The notes: generated by a model not told the origin, from the letters alone. DNA of 13,981 bases from a virus (IMGVR_UViG_2531839454_000017:1-13981), one strand, 5' to 3'. Counted from the stretch's first letter, positions 4,550 through 13,177 are shown. Numbers and translations: made by a program.

Positions 4550-5239
4550 CTAACCAAATCTGTTTATATTGAATGGTACTGATGAGATCACTTTAGACTG
4601 GATATAAAGCAGAGCTAACCCCTCTTTTTCGATGCTCCATGGTTGATAATTGGGGTTATCAGATAACACCATGATTTTGCTTCCAATTTTTTGAAGTCTT
4701 TTCACGTAGCATTCTCCATCAAAACAAAATGCATAAATGCCATCGCCATCAAAATAAGTTACTGTCTTATCAAGAAAAAGAAGGTCGCCAGGTGAGATTG
4801 TGGGAGCCATACTGTCTCCTCTGGCGTTACCTATTTCTATATTTTTGAATGCCCGATTTCCAACAAGGCGTCGGGCATATTCAGGATCAAGTTCTATTGA
4901 GCGCACTACATCTATCAAGTCACCACGGACATGAGTTCCATCACCGCAACTAAACTCAACATCAAGGACATTAAACACGACGCTATCTGTTCTTGTCTGG
5001 TGTTTCTCTTGCGAGGAAAAGGTTGGTGAGGAGTCTTCACCTAAGAACCAGGATTGTGGATAACCGCTAATCTCGGATAAATGCGCGAGCTTATCACTCC
5101 GTGGAAATGTTTTTCCTGTTGTCCAGTACTGCACTGATTGCGCACTCACACCTAACTTGCGGGCCAGTTGAGCCTGAGTCCATCCTTTTGCTTTCAGCAT
5201 CGCGGCTATTCGATTTTCCGTGTTTTTGACGTTCTTCAT
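4550..5239 (-). CDS. Prophage CI-like repressor: N-terminal XRE HTH plus C-terminal S24 (LexA-like) autopeptidase, about 229 aa
   Basis: HTH (WTQAQLARKLGVSAQSVQYW) and S24 motifs (GDSMAPTISPGDLLFLD with the catalytic Ser; YVKRL with the Lys). The track start is TTG at 5245; the ATG at 5239 is preferred. Divergent from a Cro-like gene. Confidence 0.9.
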   Translation of the reverse strand: MKNVKNTENRIAAMLKAKGWTQAQLARKLGVSAQSVQYWTTGKTFPRSDKLAHLSEISGYPQSWFLGEDSSPTFSSQEKHQTRTDSVVFNVLDVEFSCGDGTHVRGDLIDVVRSIELDPEYARRLVGNRAFKNIEIGNARGDSMAPTISPGDLLFLDKTVTYFDGDGIYAFCFDGECYVKRLQKIGSKIMVLSDNPNYQPWSIEKEGLALLYIQSKVISSVPFNINRFG

Positions 5240-5372
5240 GACCAAATCCTGTGGGTTTCTTTACAAGGATAAATCTTTACTTGATTTTAGTGTATTCGAT
5301 CCTTTTGCAACTTGCATGTTAATTTAAACTTGATGTATTCTTGATTTATAAAGTTAATGTTGGTGCTTTGTT
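5240..5372. promoter_or_regulatory. Divergent cI/cro promoter-operator region
   Basis: AT-rich 133-bp spacer between divergent repressor genes; three direct copies of a CTTGAT(T/G)T motif (about 5280, 5329, 5341); palindrome TGCAAcTTGCA at 5306-5316; a possible rightward promoter (TTAAAC, 17 bp, TATAAA at 5324-5352). Confidence 0.55.
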
Positions 5373-5645
5373 ATGAAAGGAAATGATTACGACAAACTTC
5401 GTGCATTAATTGCGCAAAATGCCATAGCGCGAAATCTTGGTGTGACGCCGCAAGCGGTGAATCAGTGGTTTTCAAAAAACACAATTCCTGCTCGTTTCGT
5501 TTTACGCGTATGTGAAGTAGTTGCATGGAAGGTCACGCCACATGGCTTAAGGCCAGATCTTTATCCTCACCCTGAAGATGGAATTCCTGATTCGTTACGC
5601 AAAATTTCAAATCCAAGCTTAGCGCATACAGAGGACGAGAAGTGA
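5373..5645 (+). CDS. Cro-like HTH regulator (YdaS/DicC-like), 90 aa
   Basis: HTH signature IARNLGVTPQAVNQWFSKNTIP; divergent arrangement with the CI-like repressor, as in lambdoid immunity regions. Confidence 0.75.
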   Translation: MKGNDYDKLRALIAQNAIARNLGVTPQAVNQWFSKNTIPARFVLRVCEVVAWKVTPHGLRPDLYPHPEDGIPDSLRKISNPSLAHTEDEK

Positions 5646-5715: not shown

Positions 5716-6009
5716 TTAGCGTTCGCTGAGAAGTTGTTGGTAAGCCTTAAAGGATGCGAACTGCATTCTACCTTCGGCATTGATTCCAATGCCTTCGCTT
5801 GTACACCAGGTGATGAACTCGGCTGTATCCGCTTCAACTTTAATAACTCGTTGCCCGCTTCTTTCGACACGCTTAATCAATTTTTCAGCGTCGTGTTTCC
5901 ACTCGGTGTAACTGTCGGAGAGCACATCAGCATCAGTAAAAATATTTTTGAGCTCATGATACTGAATCGCATCGCGAAACCAGAATAAACCAACGGCCTG
6001 AACTTTCAT
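5716..6009 (-). CDS. Hypothetical protein, 97 aa; reverse-oriented moron inside the rightward early operon
   Basis: ATG at 6009 preceded by AAGGAGG with 6-nt spacing; balanced protein-like composition. The overlapping plus-strand ORF 5656..5988 is judged spurious. Confidence 0.65.
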   Translation of the reverse strand: MKVQAVGLFWFRDAIQYHELKNIFTDADVLSDSYTEWKHDAEKLIKRVERSGQRVIKVEADTAEFITWCTSEGIGINAEGRMQFASFKAYQQLLSER

Positions 6010-6122
6010 GTCGAACCTCCTTTGGTTCTTTTGTTTATAGGGATCAAAAGGATAACTGAAGGAAGGTTCGGCACCAATAAGTACGAATGTGCGGAATCTT
6101 AAAAGAATTTATCCGTAAGGAG

Positions 6123-6836
6123 ATGGCAGTGAACACCGCAATTTTTAACGACAAAGCATCCATGACCAGCGTTGAGATCGCAGAGCTGGTGGGTAGTCAG
6201 CACTCAGATGTTAAACGTAGTATCGAACGCCTGGTTGCTAAAAACATCATCCGGAAACCGCCAATGGCTGTTTCCGAGAAAATCAATAACTTAGGTTTTA
6301 AAGTTCAATATGAGCATTACCTGTTTGAAGGAGAACAAGGTAAGCGCGACAGCATCATTGTCGTCGCACAGCTCTGCCCTGAATTCACTGCTCGCCTGGT
6401 AGATCGCTGGCGTGAACTGGAAGAACAGATCCGTAAGCCAATGAGCGAAATTGAAATGGTTGCTGCGATGGCTCTTGAAGCCGTTCGTCAGCAGAAACGG
6501 ATCACTCAGGTGGAAGAAAAAGTCAGCCATGTTGCCGAAACAGTTGAGCAAATCAAAAGGGGTACCATTCGTGAGGGCTATGCCGGATATCGCCAACTGA
6601 AAGCGAAAACCGGTTTGTCAGATGATAAATGCCGCAATCTGGTGAACGCCTATCAAATTCCTACAGATACCCACGAGTTTATGACGCCGGACGGATTGTT
6701 ATCACGTCGCGCAATTGTTGCTGTGGAACCGTTTATGGCCGCTTTTTATCAGGTTATGGAGGAAGCAGAACCGCGAGGGACTCGCTGGTATCACCCGAAA
6801 ATGGGGTTATTTCAGGTTATTGGTTGGCAGCGGTGA
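6123..6836 (+). CDS. Rha/antirepressor-like phage regulatory protein (N-terminal Rha-like motif plus unassigned C-terminal domain)
   Basis: Motif MTSVEIAELVGSQHSDVKRSIERL resembles the Rha N-terminal domain. Start is ambiguous: track ATG 6087 (no SD), ATG 6123, or GTG 6129 (AAGGAG at 6117-6122, best spacing). Stop TGA at 6834-6836. Confidence 0.6.
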   Translation: MAVNTAIFNDKASMTSVEIAELVGSQHSDVKRSIERLVAKNIIRKPPMAVSEKINNLGFKVQYEHYLFEGEQGKRDSIIVVAQLCPEFTARLVDRWRELEEQIRKPMSEIEMVAAMALEAVRQQKRITQVEEKVSHVAETVEQIKRGTIREGYAGYRQLKAKTGLSDDKCRNLVNAYQIPTDTHEFMTPDGLLSRRAIVAVEPFMAAFYQVMEEAEPRGTRWYHPKMGLFQVIGWQR

Positions 6837-6860
6837 AAAAAAGCCGGGTAGTGACCCGGC
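6836..6860 (-). terminator. Orphan minus-strand intrinsic terminator
   Basis: GCCGGGT-AGTG-ACCCGGC hairpin (6843-6860) followed, in minus sense, by seven U (plus-strand A-run 6836-6842); no U-tract on the plus side. Confidence 0.5.
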
Positions 6861-7062
6861 TCGCTCAACGTTAGTAAAGGCAACCTCACAAAGAAGTAAG
6901 CCAGTAACATCCAAGAACATTTGCGTTAGTAAAAATACCAGTAAGCATATGAATGTTTCAAGCCTAAATATTGATTCTGCAATTTCGGGACGTTACACTG
7001 TCTCCGCACCTTATAAAGCGGGTGCCGGGATTGGAACCCCGGAATTGCTCGAGGCGATATAC

Positions 7063-7082
7063 GACGCGCTAGCGTCTTTTTT
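7063..7082 (+). terminator. Plus-strand terminator-like hairpin between the two Rha genes (tR-like)
   Basis: GACGC-GCTA-GCGTC stem-loop followed by TTTTTT (7077-7082). Confidence 0.4.
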
Positions 7083-7248
7083 ATCGTCCATGCTCGCGCA
7101 CGCCAGAATTATGGTGGGCTGGGCAGGGGAGCCGAAAGGCTCGCCGGTTTCCTTGAGCGCCGGTAGTTCCAACCCTGTTCAGTCCGCCACCAGCGAGCTT
7201 GGAACCTCCGGTGGTGGAAGTTTTTCACTGCTCAAGGAGGCTGCCATC

Positions 7249-7611
7249 ATGGCTACAGTCCCAACTTCCCCATACCTGAAAATCGAAGTCGTCAACGGCA
7301 AGGCCGTTATTTTCTCCCTGCATGTTGCCTGCCACTTTAAGCGCATGCACCAGAACATCGTCGACAAAATCGAGTATCTGAACTGCTCACGCGAGTTTTT
7401 TACCCGCAATTTCATACCGGGTACTTATCACATCTATGGTGACTCCCTGCGTGGTTATTACATCACCCTTGATGGCCTGATGATGCTTCAGCTTGGGTTA
7501 AGTCTGCGCACAATGCGGTACTACGAGAGCTGTATTGAAGCATTCCATGAGGCAGAAACTAACCTGAATCACACCGCTTTCCGCCGTAATCAATGGGAGG
7601 TGCGTCCATGA
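7249..7611 (+). CDS. Rha-family phage regulatory protein, 120 aa
   Basis: HFKRMHQNIVDKIEYL ... NFIPGTY ... YYITLDGLMMLQLG ... CIEAFHEAE matches the Rha N-terminal domain pattern. ATG at 7249 preceded by AAGGAGG with 8-nt spacing. The same frame stays open upstream to 6715 but without a credible start. Confidence 0.7.
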   Translation: MATVPTSPYLKIEVVNGKAVIFSLHVACHFKRMHQNIVDKIEYLNCSREFFTRNFIPGTYHIYGDSLRGYYITLDGLMMLQLGLSLRTMRYYESCIEAFHEAETNLNHTAFRRNQWEVRP

Positions 7612-7802
7612 TTAGTTACGAAATTATTATTTCCACAACTGAATACAGAAACGATGTATCAGTTCGCACGGATACGTCTGTCTGGCACCGCCGCTATAAA
7701 TCTAGGAAAACAGCGGAACGTAAAGCAGCGGAGATGTGTGAAACCATCGCAATGAAAGGCAGTCCGGTTAAATACATCACTACGGCGGAGGGGCGCCCAT
7801 GA
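7608..7802 (+). CDS. Hypothetical small phage protein, 64 aa
   Basis: ATG at 7608 overlaps the Rha stop (ATGA); GGGAGG lies 7 nt upstream. Confidence 0.6.
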   Translation: MISYEIIISTTEYRNDVSVRTDTSVWHRRYKSRKTAERKAAEMCETIAMKGSPVKYITTAEGRP

Positions 7803-8023
7803 TTCGTCGCGTTGTGAATTCTCTGTATCACCGATACAACCGTTGCCCCCGTGTGGGGCAGTGGTTTGCCACCAGCAACGGTCACGTTCTGCGGGTTTGC
7901 CTGGTCAGTACCGAAAGCCAGAAAGTTGTGTGTGAATTACTGGGGCGTAACTACACCATTAGCTATCCGTTGATGGCGTTTCAGTCCGGAAAAATGTTTA
8001 AACGCCTGGGAGGTGCCGTGTGA
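7799..8023 (+). CDS. Hypothetical small phage protein, 74 aa (Cys-containing)
   Basis: ATGA overlap with the upstream stop; GGAGGGG Shine-Dalgarno; stop overlaps the GTG start of the next gene. Confidence 0.6.
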   Translation: MIRRVVNSLYHRYNRCPRVGQWFATSNGHVLRVCLVSTESQKVVCELLGRNYTISYPLMAFQSGKMFKRLGGAV

Positions 8024-8976
8024 GTAGCAAAATTCTCGGTAACGTCTGGGATGCATGTGCCGCGTATGGAGTCAAAGGTGCAAAGCTGATGATCATGGCG
8101 CGTCTGGCTGATTATTCGAATGATGACGGGGTGTGTTATCCCGGTGTTGAAACAATATGCCGACAGCTTGGGTTGGGAGAAAGCACAGTAAGAACAGCAA
8201 TTTCAGAGCTGGAGGCTGATGGCTGGCTGACGCGTCAGTCACGCCGCAAAGGTAATCGTAATACGTCCAATCTTTATCATCTGAATGCTGATCGGCTTGA
8301 ACAGCTTGCCAGAACGGAGCGGGATAAGGTCGCAGAACTAAAACAGCAGCGCAGACTTTCAGTACTACGTGACCCGTCAAAATCTGAACCTTCAAAATCT
8401 GAACCTTCAAAATCTGAACCTTCAAAATCTGAACCGTCAGAATCTGAATGTTCAGGTGTGTTTGACCCTTCAGATTCTGGCAAAAAAACGGTTTTGACCC
8501 TTCAGAATCTGGCCCCAGATCCACAAGGTTTAAAACATGATCCGCAAGTAAATTCAAAACATGATCCGCAAGATATTGGCGCATCCGCTGACGCGTCTGC
8601 ACCAGCGCGCTCTGCCCGACAGGAATATTCACCGGAATTTGAACAGGCCTGGCAGGAATATCCCAAACGTGCTGGTGGTAATTCCAAGTCGGCAGCCTTC
8701 AAAGCCTGGAAAGCCCGTCTCAGGGAGGGAATAAAACCGGAGACCATGCTTGATGGTGTGAGACGTTATGCCGCTTGGGTACGTGCTACAGGAAATACCG
8801 GCACACAGTTCGTGAAGCAGGCTGCGACGTTCTTTGGACCCGATCGTCACTTCGAAGACTTCTGGCAACAGCCAGCCGCTCCCGGAGGGGGGCGACAGCG
8901 ACAGGTCGATGTCCTGGCTGGCCTGGGAGCCATGTCTGACAAATTCGGTAAATCCAGTGACAAATTGACATTCTGA
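8020..8976 (+). CDS. Phage replication initiator (lambda O-like replisome organiser): N-terminal winged-helix region, central repeats, C-terminal domain
   Basis: GTG start with GGGAGG 6 nt upstream, coupled to the preceding gene; PSKSE repeated four times plus further repeats in the middle; position immediately upstream of the DnaC- and DnaB-like genes. Confidence 0.75.
   Translation: MSSKILGNVWDACAAYGVKGAKLMIMARLADYSNDDGVCYPGVETICRQLGLGESTVRTAISELEADGWLTRQSRRKGNRNTSNLYHLNADRLEQLARTERDKVAELKQQRRLSVLRDPSKSEPSKSEPSKSEPSKSEPSESECSGVFDPSDSGKKTVLTLQNLAPDPQGLKHDPQVNSKHDPQDIGASADASAPARSARQEYSPEFEQAWQEYPKRAGGNSKSAAFKAWKARLREGIKPETMLDGVRRYAAWVRATGNTGTQFVKQAATFFGPDRHFEDFWQQPAAPGGGRQRQVDVLAGLGAMSDKFGKSSDKLTF
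8374..8512. repeat. Iteron-like array inside the O-like gene; candidate phage replication origin
   Basis: Five tandem 15-bp units (TCAAAATCTGAACCT and variants) at 8377-8451, then two copies of TTTGACCCTTCAGA(T/A)TCTGG flanking an A-run (8461-8512), and a further 17-bp direct repeat (AAAACATGATCCGCAAG, twice) near 8531-8580. Confidence 0.55.
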
Positions 8977-8986
8977 GGGGACAGCG

Positions 8987-9865
8987 ATGATGACGTTTAA
9001 CCTGCGTGAACAACAAAAAAGACTACAGGCGCGAATGGATGAGTTACGGGCAGAGATTGCATTTGCTCAGAAGGGCGAAAAGCCATGGCCTTATCGTTCC
9101 TGCCTGATGCGTGAAGGTCGCGGATATTGCGAAAAACACGGTAAATACCATACGCATATACTGGTGTGGAGCGATCGTAATGGCGAGGACAGAGAAAAAA
9201 TTTCATGCTGCCCTGACTGCTTGATCGCTGAGGCCAACGATTTGACCATGGAATTGTCGTCCATCAAGGCGGAAGAGCTGACTGATAACGCCGGAATTGC
9301 CCTGCGTTTTCGGGACTGCGAGTTTGATAATTATCTGGAGGTTAATCCTGACGCAGCCAGAAATCTTGCAGCCTGTCGCCGCTATGCGGAGAACTGGCCA
9401 GATATGCTGGAGAACGGCACCAGTCTTGTTATGACTGGCAGTTGCGGTACCGGGAAAAATCATCTGGCGGTATCAATGGCAAAACACATCATCCGTAACT
9501 ATCTGGCCAGTGTGGAGATCACCGACGTGATGCGTCTTACCCGTGCTGTGAAAAACTGCTGGCGGAATGACAGCGAAAAAACAGCGGATGAAGTTATTGA
9601 GCATTATGCGTCAATGGATTTGCTGATCATCGACGAAGTTGGTGTTCAGTTTGGCAGCGCGGCTGAAATGGCTATTTTGCAGGAAATTATCAATGCCCGG
9701 TACGAAAGTATTCTGCCCACCATCCTGATTAGCAACCTTTCACCGGATGAGTTGTGGGCGTTCATCAGCCCCCGCATTGCCGACAGGATCACAGACGGGG
9801 GGCGCAACTGGTTGTCGTTCAACTGGCCCAGCTATCGTTCTCGTATCAGAGGTGTGGCTGCATGA
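8987..9865 (+). CDS. DnaC-like helicase loader (AAA+ ATPase, IstB/DnaC family)
   Basis: Walker A GSCGTGKNHLA (compare E. coli DnaC GKPGTGKNHLA) and Walker B DLLIIDEVG; Cys/His-rich N-terminus; GAGGGG Shine-Dalgarno 6 nt upstream. Confidence 0.85.
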   Translation: MMTFNLREQQKRLQARMDELRAEIAFAQKGEKPWPYRSCLMREGRGYCEKHGKYHTHILVWSDRNGEDREKISCCPDCLIAEANDLTMELSSIKAEELTDNAGIALRFRDCEFDNYLEVNPDAARNLAACRRYAENWPDMLENGTSLVMTGSCGTGKNHLAVSMAKHIIRNYLASVEITDVMRLTRAVKNCWRNDSEKTADEVIEHYASMDLLIIDEVGVQFGSAAEMAILQEIINARYESILPTILISNLSPDELWAFISPRIADRITDGGRNWLSFNWPSYRSRIRGVAA

Positions 9866-11253
9866 CAATACCAGTCTGGCGTAACGATGACCTGGAAGGC
9901 GCTGTTATTGGCGCGTTCTTTCTGCGTGGGGCAGATCCTGAAGTGATGGATATTCTGGCCACATTGCCGGCGGACGTTTTTTCTGTACGAGCGTATCGGG
10001 ATATCTACACAGGTATCTGCAGACAGGCCCGTGTTTCAGGTGTGATTGACCCTGTGCTGCTGTGTAATGAGATGCCGGAACTTGCCCCGGTGATTACTGA
10101 TACCGGGCGCAAAACCTGGGTGAAGTCGTCACTGGAGCACTATGTTGCAGCGTTGCGGCGCAATGCCGCATTGCGCGATGCAGAAAAAACACTGAATGAG
10201 GCGTTACAGAAATTACGTGATGCGCATACCTGTGAAGCAGCTGAAGATGCTCTGAAGGATGCGCAGAACATGATGGCCTCATTGTCGACGGGGAAGGGTA
10301 TTATTCAGCCGGTACATATTGATGATGTGCTTCCGGAAGTGGTTGAACGTGTTGAATGCCGGAATCAGGGGCTGGAGAAATCCAGGACGCTGATGACCGG
10401 TATTGATGAACTGGACGCAAAAACAGGCGGTATGGAACCCGGCGACCTGGTATTTATTGCGGCTCGTCCTTCGATGGGTAAAACCGAACTGGCGCTGGAT
10501 ATCATCGACAAGGTGACTGAGCAGGGGCATGGTGTTCTTCTGTTCACAATGGAAATGGCGAACATCCAGATTGGTGAGCGCATGGTATCTGCGGCTGGAG
10601 GAATGCCGGTATCACGCCTGAAATCTGTCACTCACTTTGAAGACGAAGACTGGGCACGTTTCTCACAAGGAGTGGGGCGGATGACCGGGCGCAATATCTG
10701 GATGGTGGACCAGGCGAACCTGACCATTGACGAGATATACGCAACAACGAAACACCACCTGATTAAACATCCGGAAACGGCGCTGGTGGTGGTTGATTAT
10801 CTCGGGCTGATAAAAACCCGGAGCACGGGGCGTCATGACCTTGCCGTGGGTGAAATCTCAAAGGGGCTTAAAGGCCTGGCAAAATCCGGCGGATTACCGG
10901 TGGTTGCGTTGAGTCAGCTCTCCCGCGGTGTGGAGTCCAGGCCCAATAAACGCCCCATGAACTCAGACCTGAAAAATTCCGGAGAAATAGAGGCGGATGC
11001 AGACATCATTCTGATGCTTTACAGGGATGAAGTGTACAACCCGGATACGCAGGCCAGGGGCATCGCAGAAATCAATATCACGAAACAACGTAACGGTTCT
11101 CTGGGAACGATTTACCGGCGTTTTTATAACGGACATTTTCTGCCTGTGGATCAGGAAAGCGCACAGATTCTTTCTACCCCAATGCAGCAGCCCCAGCCGC
11201 GCAGATACAGCAACAAACGAACTGACAGCAGTAAGATGGAGCGTTTCTTTTGA
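9862..11253 (+). CDS. DnaB-family replicative helicase, about 463 aa
   Basis: ATG at 9862 overlaps the DnaC-like stop (ATGA). Motifs ARPSMGKTELALDI (Walker A), LVVVDYLGL, VVALSQLSR and KQRNGSLGT align with E. coli DnaB; the track ORF starts further upstream inside the preceding gene. Confidence 0.9.
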   Translation: MTIPVWRNDDLEGAVIGAFFLRGADPEVMDILATLPADVFSVRAYRDIYTGICRQARVSGVIDPVLLCNEMPELAPVITDTGRKTWVKSSLEHYVAALRRNAALRDAEKTLNEALQKLRDAHTCEAAEDALKDAQNMMASLSTGKGIIQPVHIDDVLPEVVERVECRNQGLEKSRTLMTGIDELDAKTGGMEPGDLVFIAARPSMGKTELALDIIDKVTEQGHGVLLFTMEMANIQIGERMVSAAGGMPVSRLKSVTHFEDEDWARFSQGVGRMTGRNIWMVDQANLTIDEIYATTKHHLIKHPETALVVVDYLGLIKTRSTGRHDLAVGEISKGLKGLAKSGGLPVVALSQLSRGVESRPNKRPMNSDLKNSGEIEADADIILMLYRDEVYNPDTQARGIAEINITKQRNGSLGTIYRRFYNGHFLPVDQESAQILSTPMQQPQPRRYSNKRTDSSKMERFF

Positions 11254-11507
11254 ACAACCAGACAACACCTTTTACCCCTGAACAATTACGTAAACAGGCA
11301 CAGGAAATGTTGCGACAGGCGGAACAACTGGAAAAAACAGGTGTAACAAAAGATGCCATTCGTCGGGATATGGTGCCAGCGCTCAGGGAACTGATGCAGG
11401 CGAAACACCGCGCACAAAAAGCGGTGGATGAGCTGGTGGATTGTGTGGCAGAGCTGGAAACCAGAGTTGGAAAGTTTGAAAAACTGGTGCAGGAGGTGCT
11501 GCGCTGA
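11250..11507 (+). CDS. Hypothetical small protein, 85 aa, probably coiled-coil
   Basis: TTG start at 11250 overlapping the helicase stop, with GGAG about 8 nt upstream; an internal ATG at 11307 is an alternative start. Stop overlaps the Q start. Confidence 0.5.
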
Positions 11508-11890
11508 TGCGTGATATTCAGATGGTTCTTGAGCGTTGGGGGGCATGGGTGGCAAATAATCATGAGGATGTCACCTGGTCATCGATTGCAGCCGGATTCA
11601 AGGGACTTATTCCTTCAAAGGTTAAATCGCGACCGCAATGTAGTGATGATGACGCAATGGTTATTTGTGGGTGTATGGCTCGTTTGAAAAAGAACAACAG
11701 TGATTTGCATGATTTGCTGGTAGATTATTATGTGGCTGGTATGACGTTTATGGCACTGGCCCGTAAGCATCATTGTTCTGATGGATATATAGGAAAAAAA
11801 CTTCAGAAGGCTGAAGGAATAGTCGACGGAATGTTGATGGCACTGGATGTTCGTCTCGAGATGGATCTTGAAGTTGTTAGATGTTATTGA
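11507..11890 (+). CDS. Late-gene antiterminator Q, 127 aa (phage 21/QuuD-like type)
   Basis: Length, sequence ([24 protein letters not shown] ... [23 protein letters not shown]) and position before the late-region porin match the short Q family of DLP12/phage-21-type lambdoids; AGGAGG upstream. Confidence 0.8.
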
Positions 11891-12079: not shown

Positions 12080-13177
12080 TTAGAACTGGTAAACCATACC
12101 GACAGCAACAATATCGTCGGTGTTTATACCAAGACCTCTGGTGAAATCATTTTTGTCAAGCAGGTTGATTTTGTAATCAACGAAAGTAGACATATTTTTG
12201 TTGAAGTAATAGGTTGCGCCTACATCAACATATTTAACTAAGTCTTGATCGCCCCATACTCCGAGATCTTTACCTTTAGATTGCAGGTAAGCCACGGACG
12301 GACGCAGCCCAAAATCGAACTGATATTGTGCAACAGCCTCAACGTTCTGAGCTTTATTAGCGACGAAGCGATCAGCAAATACCGTCATATTCTGGGTTTC
12401 AGAATAGGTAGTGGCCAAGTAAATGTTGTTAGCGTCATATTTCAGACCAGCGGCCCAAACTTCTGCATTTTTACCGGAAGCAAATACTCCAGGAAGAACT
12501 TTCCCTAGATTAACTTGAGTGTCGGTACGGTCAGATTTCGCATAAGTTGCACCAATACCGAATCCTTCGTATTCATAGGTAGCAGAGAAACCGAAGCCAT
12601 CACCGTTACCTTCGGTATAGTTATCGAGATTGCTACGATCGTTTTTGCCTTGGTACTGAGCAGCAAAGTTCAGACCATCAACCAGACCGAAGAAGTCGTT
12701 ATTACGGTAAGTTGCAACACCAGTTGCACGCTGAGTCATGAATACGTCGGTTTGAGTCCAGGTATCCCCACCGAATTCTGGCAAAACGTCAGTCCACGCA
12801 CCGATGTCGTATGCTACACCGTAGTTACGGCCATAATCGATGGAGCCGTAGTCACCGAATTTCAGGCCAGCGAATGCAAGGCGAGTTTTATCCCCGGAAG
12901 AACCTTGAGATTCAGCACGGTTGCCTTTGAATTCATATTCCCACTGACCGAAACCAGTCAGTTGATCATTGATTTGGGTTTCGCCTTTGAAGCCCAGACG
13001 AGCATAAGTTTTGTCACCATCGTGTTTATCGTTAGAGGAGAAGTAGTGCTCGGCATTAACTTTTCCGTACAGATCCAGTTTGTTGCTGTCTTTGTTATAA
13101 ATCTCTGCTGCTTGAGCAGACATCGCCATTAATACTGACGCAGCTACAGCAGAGATTGCCACTGTTAATTTTTTCAT
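12080..13177 (-). CDS. nmpC: Prophage-encoded outer-membrane porin (OmpC/OmpF superfamily, NmpC/Lc type), 365 aa
   Basis: Signal peptide [23 protein letters not shown] followed by AEIYNKD; general-porin beta-barrel sequence ending in the C-terminal VYQF; minus-strand gene placed just after Q, as nmpC in DLP12 and lc in PA-2; AAGGA Shine-Dalgarno. Confidence 0.93.

Follow-up and report, generated by a model that had tools for sequence, protein, structure and literature searches.

What fills the unusually long gap between two neighboring genes of the Rha family in an Escherichia coli prophage? The sequence in question is IMGVR_UViG_2531839454_000017:1-13981, a stretch of 13,981 nucleotides (nt), here called the window, which comes from a lambdoid prophage and is 100% identical to strain 504838. 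A first description made from the DNA alone (the sequence-only reading) had pointed to a long spacer between the two genes, and the distances bear this out: the stop codon of the upstream gene, rha1, lies at 6834-6836 and the ATG of the downstream gene, which encodes a regulator of 120 amino acids (aa) and is called Rha120 here, at 7249, leaving a spacer of 412 nt (6837-7248). We propose, at a probability of about 0.85, that this spacer is an IsrK-C4 RNA immunity cassette heading the gene for Rha120, a regulator of the Rha family. An "IsrK-C4 immunity system" has been named in P4, P1, P7, N15 and lambdoid prophages (PMC3632133).

The spacer encodes an IsrK RNA and a C4 RNA

An Rfam scan returned two adjacent matches on the same strand. 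The first was to isrK (RF01394), which scored 63.2 bits against a gathering score of 50 and covered positions 1-77 of the 77 in the model. The second was to C4 (RF01695, of clan CL00128, which includes P4 CI), which scored 84 bits against a gathering score of 45 and covered positions 1-87 of 87. The Rfam c4-a1b1 family gave only a sub-threshold match at 6993-7045 (23.3 against 46.7), and to judge by this low score the upstream element is shown to be of the IsrK type rather than the P1 type. Small RNAs had been suspected in the spacer from the start; RNAs are indeed involved and the spacer is not empty, but its main content lies on the plus strand (IsrK and C4) and not on the minus strand. No tRNA or tmRNA was found in the spacer.

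The plus-strand terminator-like hairpin noticed in the sequence-only reading was called by the terminator scan, with six T residues behind it, and it is the terminator of IsrK. The promoter that we place ahead of this RNA, PisrK, is suggested by invariant sequence at the point where the shared homology starts on the left, and by alignment with the Salmonella prophage Gifsy-1. Its putative elements are a -35 TTGATT (6971-6976), a 17-nt spacer and a -10 TACACT (6994-6999) that ends six bases ahead of the first IsrK base, with +1 at about 7006. The homology common to all 80 related loci starts exactly at ATATTGATTCTGCAATTTCGGGACGTTACACTG, the PisrK block; the region is a mosaic junction, where at least eight unrelated sequences adjoin the cassette on its left. 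In Gifsy-1 the counterpart, TTGACA-17-TATATT, stands at the same position. The 4-6 bases between the -10 element and IsrK (window 7000-7005) were the most variable columns of the whole cassette, with up to four different bases each and invariant sequence on either side.

The predicted fold of the RNA from 7006 to 7265 was far more stable than that of shuffled sequences (z = -5.7), and the block 6994-7248 (255 nt) carried zero indels across 80 related viral contigs. Together with both Rfam scores and with the frame and pairings conserved in more than 100 relatives (below), this places the features of the spacer beyond chance.

C4 and its target boxes follow a base-pairing code

The C4 RNA has an outer stem of 17 bp enclosing two hairpins, with the conserved AUGG at its 5' end (7111), the counterpart of the Gifsy-1 orf45 start, and ...CCACCA at its 3' end. 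The loop of its second hairpin (b') and a single-stranded junction (a') are complementary to two pairs of boxes, a1 and b1 in IsrK and a2 and b2 in the leader of Rha120. RNAduplex gave a duplex of 14 bp and -24.8 kcal/mol between b' and b2, which spans the Shine-Dalgarno sequence (SD) of Rha120 and was equaled by 1 of 500 shuffles. The duplex of a' with a2 came to -20.4 kcal, that of a' with a1 to -23.0 kcal (1 of 500 shuffles equally good) and that of b' with b1 to -17.4 kcal. Further C4 targets were not found in the window, and neither were the boxes outside the cassette.

Stem and pairing counts were taken from an alignment of 45 diverse cassettes. Across this alignment a' and a2 were paired in 100% of cases, with six of the seven pairs changed on both sides, and b' and b2 in 89%, with 7/12 pairs doubly changed. 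For the named structure overall, 97.2% of the alignment cells were paired, against 79% after shuffling and 35-47% when the partners were slid against each other. A further helix, in whose loop a2 lies, was 98% paired (5/9 doubly changed). It is incompatible with the C4 outer stem, and therefore the unprocessed transcript can flip between two folds.

The 80 close relatives carried three alleles of a and four of b, with the identical change at all three sites of a set, and 11 of the 12 possible combinations were present. The wider collection of 141 distinct cassettes, whose C4 cores had been pulled from IMG/VR by a DNA pattern blind to reading frame, comprised 17 alleles of a and 26 of b, in 54 combinations; all four boxes were perfectly complementary to their own a' and b' in 106/141, compared with 1-13% in a non-cognate control. 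The features of the locus are collected in Table 1.

Table 1. Features of the cassette, its flanking genes and the leftward elements (window coordinates)
Feature	Position	Strand	Basis or remark
rha1, Rha/Ant-like	6087-6836	+	Pfam Phage_pRha, E 5.7e-8; PHROG 63 anti-repressor Ant, E 5.6e-48
Leftward-only intrinsic terminator	6834-6862	-	Hairpin 6843-6860, stem GCCGGG/CCCGGC; T7 = A-run 6836-6842
Candidate leftward small RNA, about 90 nt	6834-6926	-	Fold -31.8 kcal/mol, z = -4.4
Leftward sigma-70 promoter-like site, TTGAAA-18 nt-TGgTATTTT (extended -10)	6932-6961	-	Back to back with PisrK
Long stop-free frame that shares the phase of Rha120, 220 aa	6949-7611	+	PGAP "ash family protein"; position of P4 eta
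PisrK, putative constitutive promoter (analogue of P4 PLE), inside the long open frame	6971-6999	+	Homology edge and Gifsy-1 alignment
IsrK small RNA gene (P4 seqA homologue)	7006-7082	+	Rfam RF01394, 63.2 bits; boxes a1/b1; own terminator
Box a1	7031-7038	+	In IsrK
Box b1	7047-7054	+	In IsrK
IsrK intrinsic terminator	7063-7082	+	Hairpin 7063-7076 and T6 7077-7082; terminator scan
C4-type antisense RNA (P4 CI; Gifsy-1 STnc1160)	7107-7194	+	Rfam RF01695, 84 bits
C4 outer stem, 17 bp	7112-7128 x 7173-7189	+	99.9% paired, 8 doubly changed pairs
C4 hairpin 1	7129-7142	+	100% paired, 4/5 pairs doubly changed
C4 hairpin 2	7143-7164	+	Invariant; loop = b'
C4 b' (hairpin 2 loop)	7148-7159	+	Complementary to b1, b2
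C4 a' (single-stranded junction)	7166-7172	+	Complementary to a1, a2
Alternative helix	7183-7191 x 7210-7218	+	a2 in its loop; excludes C4 outer stem
Box a2	7199-7205	+	Rha120 leader, pairs with a'
Box b2	7229-7242	+	Rha120 leader, contains SD AAGGAGG 7234-7240
Rha120, 120-aa Rha-family regulator, controlled gene	7249-7611	+	Pfam Phage_pRha, 30 bits against a cut-off of 29.9

The open frame across the cassette is maintained without a coding signature

The sequence-only reading had described a Rha frame that stays open across the spacer without a start. The open stretch was confirmed, from 6685/6715 to 7611 with about 137 codons inside the spacer. The lack of a start held only in part: there are in-frame ATGs at 6949, 7090 and 7111, and ATG 7249 is the sole start that bears an SD. 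The predicted duplex with the anti-SD came to -11.4 kcal/mol at ATG 7249, against -0.2 at 6949, +0.7 at 7090, +0.4 at 7111 and a background mean of -2.0.

Alignment of the spacer across relatives, which the sequence-only reading had called for, showed both the open frame and the pairings to be conserved in more than 100 of them. Among 110 distinct cassettes this frame was free of stop codons in 89%; the other two forward frames reached 24.5% and 3.6%, and no reverse frame exceeded 3.6%. When the sequences were grouped into 43 clusters at <85% identity, the corresponding counts for the three forward frames were 32 against 4 and 4. Within the distinct b' alleles, stop trinucleotides fell in phase 0 in 1/16. 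From the C4 AUG the frame runs at least 100 codons into the downstream gene in 79/87 cassettes, and upstream of that AUG it is open for at least 47 codons, across IsrK and the promoter, again in 79/87.

The same segment lacks the substitution pattern of a protein-coding sequence. Variable columns in the block that carries the Ash protein label (see below) were spread over the three codon positions as 25/26/22, with nucleotide diversity (pi) of 0.110/0.097/0.090, whereas the Rha120 open reading frame (ORF) in the same loci had 34/30/72 variable columns and pi of 0.048/0.051/0.162. The "amino-acid" variation of the block is that of the RNA pairing boxes, with radical changes (for example LLE, LHT, LST) in step at three sites. 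The frame is thus kept open by selection but is not constrained as protein, and it is the counterpart of eta (long form) and kil (short form) of P4. This overturns the suggestion that it is a decayed N-terminal extension, since it is kept stop-free in most of about 110 diverse cassettes, without a coding signature and in the manner of P4 eta/kil. Nor is it an unannotated gene, as the annotation pipeline PGAP already has 6949-7611 as an "ash family protein".

Two observations on the frame in relatives stand apart from this. In loci L085, L088, L117, L134, L168 and L199 the junction reads GCTGCCACATGGCTAC, and a difference of one nucleotide moves the downstream ATG to another phase than that of C4; the C4 frame is nonetheless open for 416 codons in these six, which points to a long product of another kind or to a later shift that compensates. 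Giant fusion proteins encoded by the very long upstream frames of L007, L030 and L020 were also considered and rejected, these frames apparently being the shadow of a divergent leftward gene.

Relation of the cassette to Gifsy-1, P4 and P1

One of the closest known systems is Gifsy-1 of Salmonella Typhimurium, like the window lambdoid, which aligns with it element by element and has a promoter, IsrK and its terminator, a C4-like RNA carrying AUGG, and a regulator gene. In both, the middle part of IsrK is complementary to the 3' part of the C4-like RNA and alternative foldings are available. In Gifsy-1, transcription of isrK in part continues past the terminator, and the isrK-orf45-anrP mRNA made in this way is translationally silent (Hershko-Shalev et al., 2016; PMC4825925). 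Short IsrK, acting in trans on this long form, switches on orf45 and, by coupling, the antirepressor-like anrP, and the region downstream of IsrK gives rise to a stable RNA, STnc1160, by processing; the same work equates IsrK with P4 seqA and STnc1160 with CI (PMC4825925).

The two loci also differ. The AUGG of the orf45 start aligns with window 7111, and the TGA of orf45 overlaps the anrP ATG, out of frame and coupled, whereas the window frame runs stop-free into Rha120. The conserved AUG at 7111 would thus yield a 166-aa product, with no stop before 7249, rather than a separate ORF of the orf45 type. The regulated genes, AnrP and Rha120, show no detectable homology (BLASTP E 0.88) and share only distant matches to "anti-repressor" or "regulator" PHROGs. 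The Gifsy-1 locus lies beside the late-gene antiterminator gene antQ, the window cassette upstream of replication genes. The b' hairpin of Gifsy-1 is degenerate. We observed this in the Gifsy-1 locus of our set (L203, 34150-34215, minus strand), where the second C4 hairpin reads GCCGGTCGGTGATCTGGT and the canonical b' loop is absent, with the a' box TACGCCAAC and the a2 box TTGGCGT intact.

P4 resembles the window in another respect. In the account of Forti et al. (1999) given in PMC10111431, eta has its start ahead of PLE, a constitutive internal promoter, and is translated only from an upstream promoter, its translation prevents immunity-specific termination, and kil is a short gene in phase with it, the first that is reachable from PLE and under CI control. 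We located this geometry on the P4 sequence: the frame occupies 8821-8168, the eta ATGs (8761-8767) lie directly at the orf88 end, the C4 AUG is found at 8503, and the kil ATG at 8365 opens a gene of 65 aa. As in the window, isrK (seqA) and C4 (CI) elements are found by Rfam in the same order, inside the old "cI protein" coding sequence (CDS), and a single frame passes over the internal promoter, seqA, CI and seqC into a short first gene (MAT...). The Pfam Ash model matches the P4 "cI gene product" CDS. P4 is a satellite and the window element a lambdoid prophage; their cargoes are Kil (65 aa) and a Rha domain, respectively. P4 and P4-like members such as L098, L120 and L158 have about 45 extra nt between the IsrK/seqA terminator and C4 (alignment A1 columns ~107-150), which the lambdoid E. 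coli cassettes lack. The eta start of P4 is coupled to the end of orf88, whereas the first in-frame ATG in the window (6949) stands 112 nt past the rha1 stop and has no SD. P4 also has a Rho-dependent terminator downstream, timm, which is used or not according to CI and translation.

The third relative is the immI locus of P1 and P7. There c4 is co-transcribed with its target and has copies of its complement on both sides, a1b1 upstream and a2b2 downstream, with b2 over the ribosome-binding site of the first gene, and allelic differences in a and b account for heteroimmunity. Citron and Schuster (1990, cited in PMC8201110) are reported to have shown that the c4 RNA of P1 and P7 binds through a' and b' to a2b2, which lies at the ribosome-binding site of icd. 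Pairing of this type was found in the window cassette by RNAduplex, by covariation and by the cognate boxes. The genes are different: 7249-7611 matched only Rha families in Pfam, NCBIfam and PHROGs and not the immI genes icd and ant. Unlike in P1, the a1b1 copy of the window is a separate, terminated small RNA, IsrK.

A model for control of Rha120

The sequence data establish which RNAs are encoded, how they pair, where the SD lies, and that the frame is conserved but has no coding signature. By homology with these systems we infer how the cassette is transcribed and processed, in which direction it regulates and what Rha120 does. PisrK would be active in the lysogen and directed rightward, and most transcripts would end at the IsrK terminator, giving the short IsrK RNA. 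Transcripts that read through would carry C4, which would be cut out and accumulate. In the C4 family a stable RNA of about 77-80 nt is cut from the precursor by RNase P or other nucleases; such excision is known for P1 and P4. Processing of this kind has been shown for STnc1160 (PMC4825925). The b' and a' segments of C4 would then pair with b2, over the SD, and with a2, and block translation of Rha120; through polarity or loss of translation this block probably also lowers expression of the overlapping downstream operon. The decoys a1 and b1 of IsrK might compete for C4 or refold the long transcript and so turn translation on, as in Gifsy-1. Ribosomes arriving from upstream transcripts, or starting at AUG 7111, might open up the RNA structures, and C4 would then no longer affect expression.

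Several points weigh against this model. PisrK matches the consensus at 8 of 12 positions, which is under the threshold of the scan, so that it was not flagged. The upstream in-frame ATGs at 6949, 7090 and 7111 have no SD, and ATG 6949 sits outside the conserved cassette, upstream of PisrK. The case for eta-like translation is therefore weaker here than for P4 or for certain relatives, L017 among them, that have a coupled, SD-bearing long-form start. Rha120 has no homologue among the genes controlled in P1 (icd/ant), P4 (kil) and Gifsy-1 (anrP), and therefore the biological outcome (antirepression or prophage induction) is only an analogy. Finally, C4 might act by premature termination, as in P4 and N15, rather than by blocking translation as in P1; the sequence is compatible with either.

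The leftward terminator belongs to rha1 and may end a small RNA

A terminator acting only leftward had been described at 6843-6860, and the terminator scan supported it (nine pairs, six of them G-C). It abuts the rha1 stop codon. Its plus-strand side has no T-run, and therefore it is unidirectional. Variants of its stem and loop preserve the pairing (GCCGGGTAGTGACCCGGC, GCCGGGAGTAACCCGGC, GCCGGGGAGTGGCCCGGC). The hairpin and its linker occurred 92 times in IMG/VR, in all 92 directly behind the stop of the same Rha/Ant-like gene and followed by about 100 nt of spacer and then PisrK. The gene rha1, the downstream hairpin and the spacer form a fixed module; the terminator is genuine and belongs to this module, not to the cassette.

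This part of the spacer could hold an additional, separate element, a leftward RNA of about 90 nt (6926 to 6834) that would be made from the promoter-like site at 6961-6932 and end at the orphan terminator. Its layout would be a conserved 5' segment GUUCUUGGAU, a middle hairpin of variable sequence, a conserved linker GUUGAG(C/U)GA and the terminator, and it could work through GUUCUUGGAU or as antisense to rightward read-through between rha1 and the long frame. We regard such an RNA as a real possibility, though we lean slightly against it. Beside the terminator itself and the stable predicted fold (Table 1), the promoter-like site is the sole match in the 2 kb scanned (5800-7800), and its hexamers and spacing are identical in the diverged L002-type and L008-type spacers. 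The three spacer types, despite their different middles, share TTGAAA-18-TGnTAT(T/C)TT, an invariant block of 13 nt around GTTCTTGGAT just downstream, a middle hairpin, the linker and the terminator. A U-G pair of the window's spacer type is U-A in the close variants L015 and L045; on the plus strand this U-G pair would be a C-A mismatch.

Other findings tell against it. Rfam returned only chance-level matches (SorY, AS-pc01) for the RNA, RNAalifold found compensatory changes in 1/15 pairs, and a single promoter-like match is fewer than the 2.9 expected by chance. The conserved blocks lie partly over the opening codons of the long frame, and plus-strand constraints could account for their conservation. 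Seed targets within the window numbered 8 against 4.7 expected, not beyond chance, and the RNA would be confined to the rha1 module, whose spacer type occurs in 33/5426 E. coli genomes.

Lambda oop had been offered as a comparison for this RNA, but in the strict sense the candidate would not be oop-like. It is conceivable that the early-right region here, too, produces a short leftward RNA from a promoter and intrinsic terminator of its own, and the promoter-like site and the terminator are conserved together across the three diverged spacer types. In lambda, however, the 3' end of cII is what oop is antisense to, whereas the candidate would end at the rha1 stop (6834-6836) and lie in the spacer only, overlapping no convergent CDS, and it has no sequence or Rfam similarity to oop. 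Two minus-strand ORFs, 7011-7172 and 7179-7415, were considered as the missing leftward gene and set aside: they run opposite to the cassette and Rha120, and at least 96% of relatives have stops in the reverse frames.

Alternative readings of the cassette

A different mode of action, like that of P4 and N15, would have C4 pair with a2 and b2 (and a1 and b1) to cause premature termination before or within Rha120, so that the primary effect would be on transcription of the replication operon and occlusion of the SD secondary. In P4, CI brings about termination and Eta translation averts it (PMC4825925, PMC10111431), and the closest relatives of the frame architecture are P4-like. Rha120 is moreover the first gene of a tight operon toward the O-like, DnaC-like and DnaB genes, and in the window a run of five T residues stands behind the alternative hairpin (7183-7218, then AAGTTTTTC). 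The placement of b2 exactly over the SD is, by contrast, the P1 arrangement and is enough for a translational block. No plus-strand terminator was called between 7082 and 7294, and past 7218 close relatives have AGTTATCC or AGTATTTC in place of the T-run; a conserved intrinsic terminator between C4 and Rha120 was rejected on the same ground, the T-run at 7221-7225 not being conserved. We consider termination as the main effect unlikely, though well worth keeping in mind beside the IsrK-C4 translational block.

It is far harder to sustain that the open frame encodes a genuine N-terminal Ash domain of a 220-aa Ash-Rha protein and that the RNA matches are incidental. Annotation favors it: nt 6994-7245 match Pfam PF10554 (Phage_ASH; E 6.7e-14, 52.7 bits against a cut-off of 26), PHROGs 995, 821, 3960 and 6928 include the segment, PGAP calls the whole frame an ash family protein, the frame is open in most relatives, and in a preprint on Shiga toxin (Stx) phages Ash counts as a domain of a protein, its function being unknown. 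By its match to the hidden Markov model the segment belongs to Ash. As a coding-constrained domain it does not, the excess of third-position changes seen threefold in the adjacent Rha ORF being absent from its even spread. Long runs are invariant with third positions included, and the variable residues coincide exactly with the pairing boxes and change together at three sites. In P4, what belongs to this Pfam family is the old "cI protein" CDS; it contains the CI RNA, and the immunity factor of P4 is an RNA. The start that PGAP uses, ATG 6949, lies beyond the conserved cassette, upstream of the promoter and without an SD. We therefore judge an Ash-Rha protein very improbable. No solved structure was found to resemble the 220-aa product. 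As a point of annotation, the Pfam Ash model, the PHROGs ("transcriptional regulator", "repressor") and PGAP all represent the conceptual translation of the cassette as protein, and PGAP has no non-coding RNA feature here.

That the spacer is junk, a decayed N-terminal extension or a recombination scar with chance hairpins and a chance frame, as the mosaic junction with its at least eight unrelated left-hand sequences might suggest, is refuted by conservation and covariation (no indels over 255 nt in 80 loci, the fold z of -5.7 and the frame statistics), and we give it practically no weight.

Flanking genes

PGAP annotates rha1 as a "Rha family transcriptional regulator" starting at GTG 6129, with a strong SD (-9.2 kcal). 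Rha120 matched PHROG 995 (E 6.5e-58) and falls among the transcriptional regulators and anti-repressors of the PHROGs; its position is that of P4 kil, P1 icd and Gifsy-1 anrP. The operon that it heads overlaps tightly and continues into small ORFs (7593-8023) and the O-like, DnaC-like and DnaB genes. The first two small ORFs had no family in Pfam, NCBIfam or PHROGs. A leftward ORF of 97 aa (5716-6009, minus strand), with no family match, lies between a cro-like gene (5373-5645, plus strand) and rha1, and the cro promoter may therefore not drive rha1 and the cassette directly. A CI-like repressor is encoded at 4550-5245.

Further downstream, PGAP marks the DnaC/IstB-like ATP-binding gene (8957-9865) as frameshifted; in the window an ORF of 292 aa (8987-9865) overlaps the start of the longest DnaB-helicase ORF (9754-11253) by about 110 nt. 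Downstream of the Q antiterminator gene (11507-11890) is an ompC-type porin gene of 365 aa (12080-13177, minus strand), which is probably lysogenic-conversion cargo.

Breadth of the family and its meaning

Hundreds of E. coli and Stx prophages carry the cassette. In some relatives it is doubled: L100 (9739-9777 and 11051-11089, both minus strand), L012, L026 and L063 carry tandem IsrK-C4-Rha120 units, 0.65-1.3 kb apart, with differing a/b alleles, the second cassette of L063 lying at 2169-2425. In L017 and L100 the entry to the second cassette is the start of a small ORF, which has a strong SD and lies over the stop of the first Rha120.

The principle of this control is already established by P4, P1 and Gifsy-1, and the value of the present analysis is in the correct interpretation of the locus and in the breadth of the family. 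It yields, as by-products, the recognition of the Ash label as a translated RNA cassette, a quantification of a/b diversity and of selection for an open frame, and an unproven candidate for a leftward small RNA. The segment to which PGAP, Pfam and the PHROGs give a "protein" label is, to go by its own substitution pattern, a regulatory cassette of RNA; in papers on Shiga-toxin phages, Ash figures as a protein whose function is unknown.

Two further ideas go beyond the known cassette: the frame might be a general "translate-to-override" device rather than a protein, with an a/b barcode, and the rha1 module might carry a leftward small RNA that modulates how upstream transcripts enter this frame. 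We put these ideas forward tentatively and, on balance, doubt them. If they were true, selection across the family would keep about 80-140 codons stop-free while the sequence evolves purely as RNA, and C4 control would be lost whenever ribosomes came in from upstream. An orthogonal barcode would arise from the 17 x 26 interchangeable a/b alleles together with the tandem cassettes of some phages, by which co-resident prophages and satellites could control each other selectively, and the leftward small RNA, divergent from PisrK, would be one not described before.

The many a/b alleles are also ready-made orthogonal RNA-RNA pairs. Placed before a Rha regulator and a replication operon, the cassette is a plausible second layer in the decision between lysis and lysogeny and in cross-immunity between prophages and satellites.

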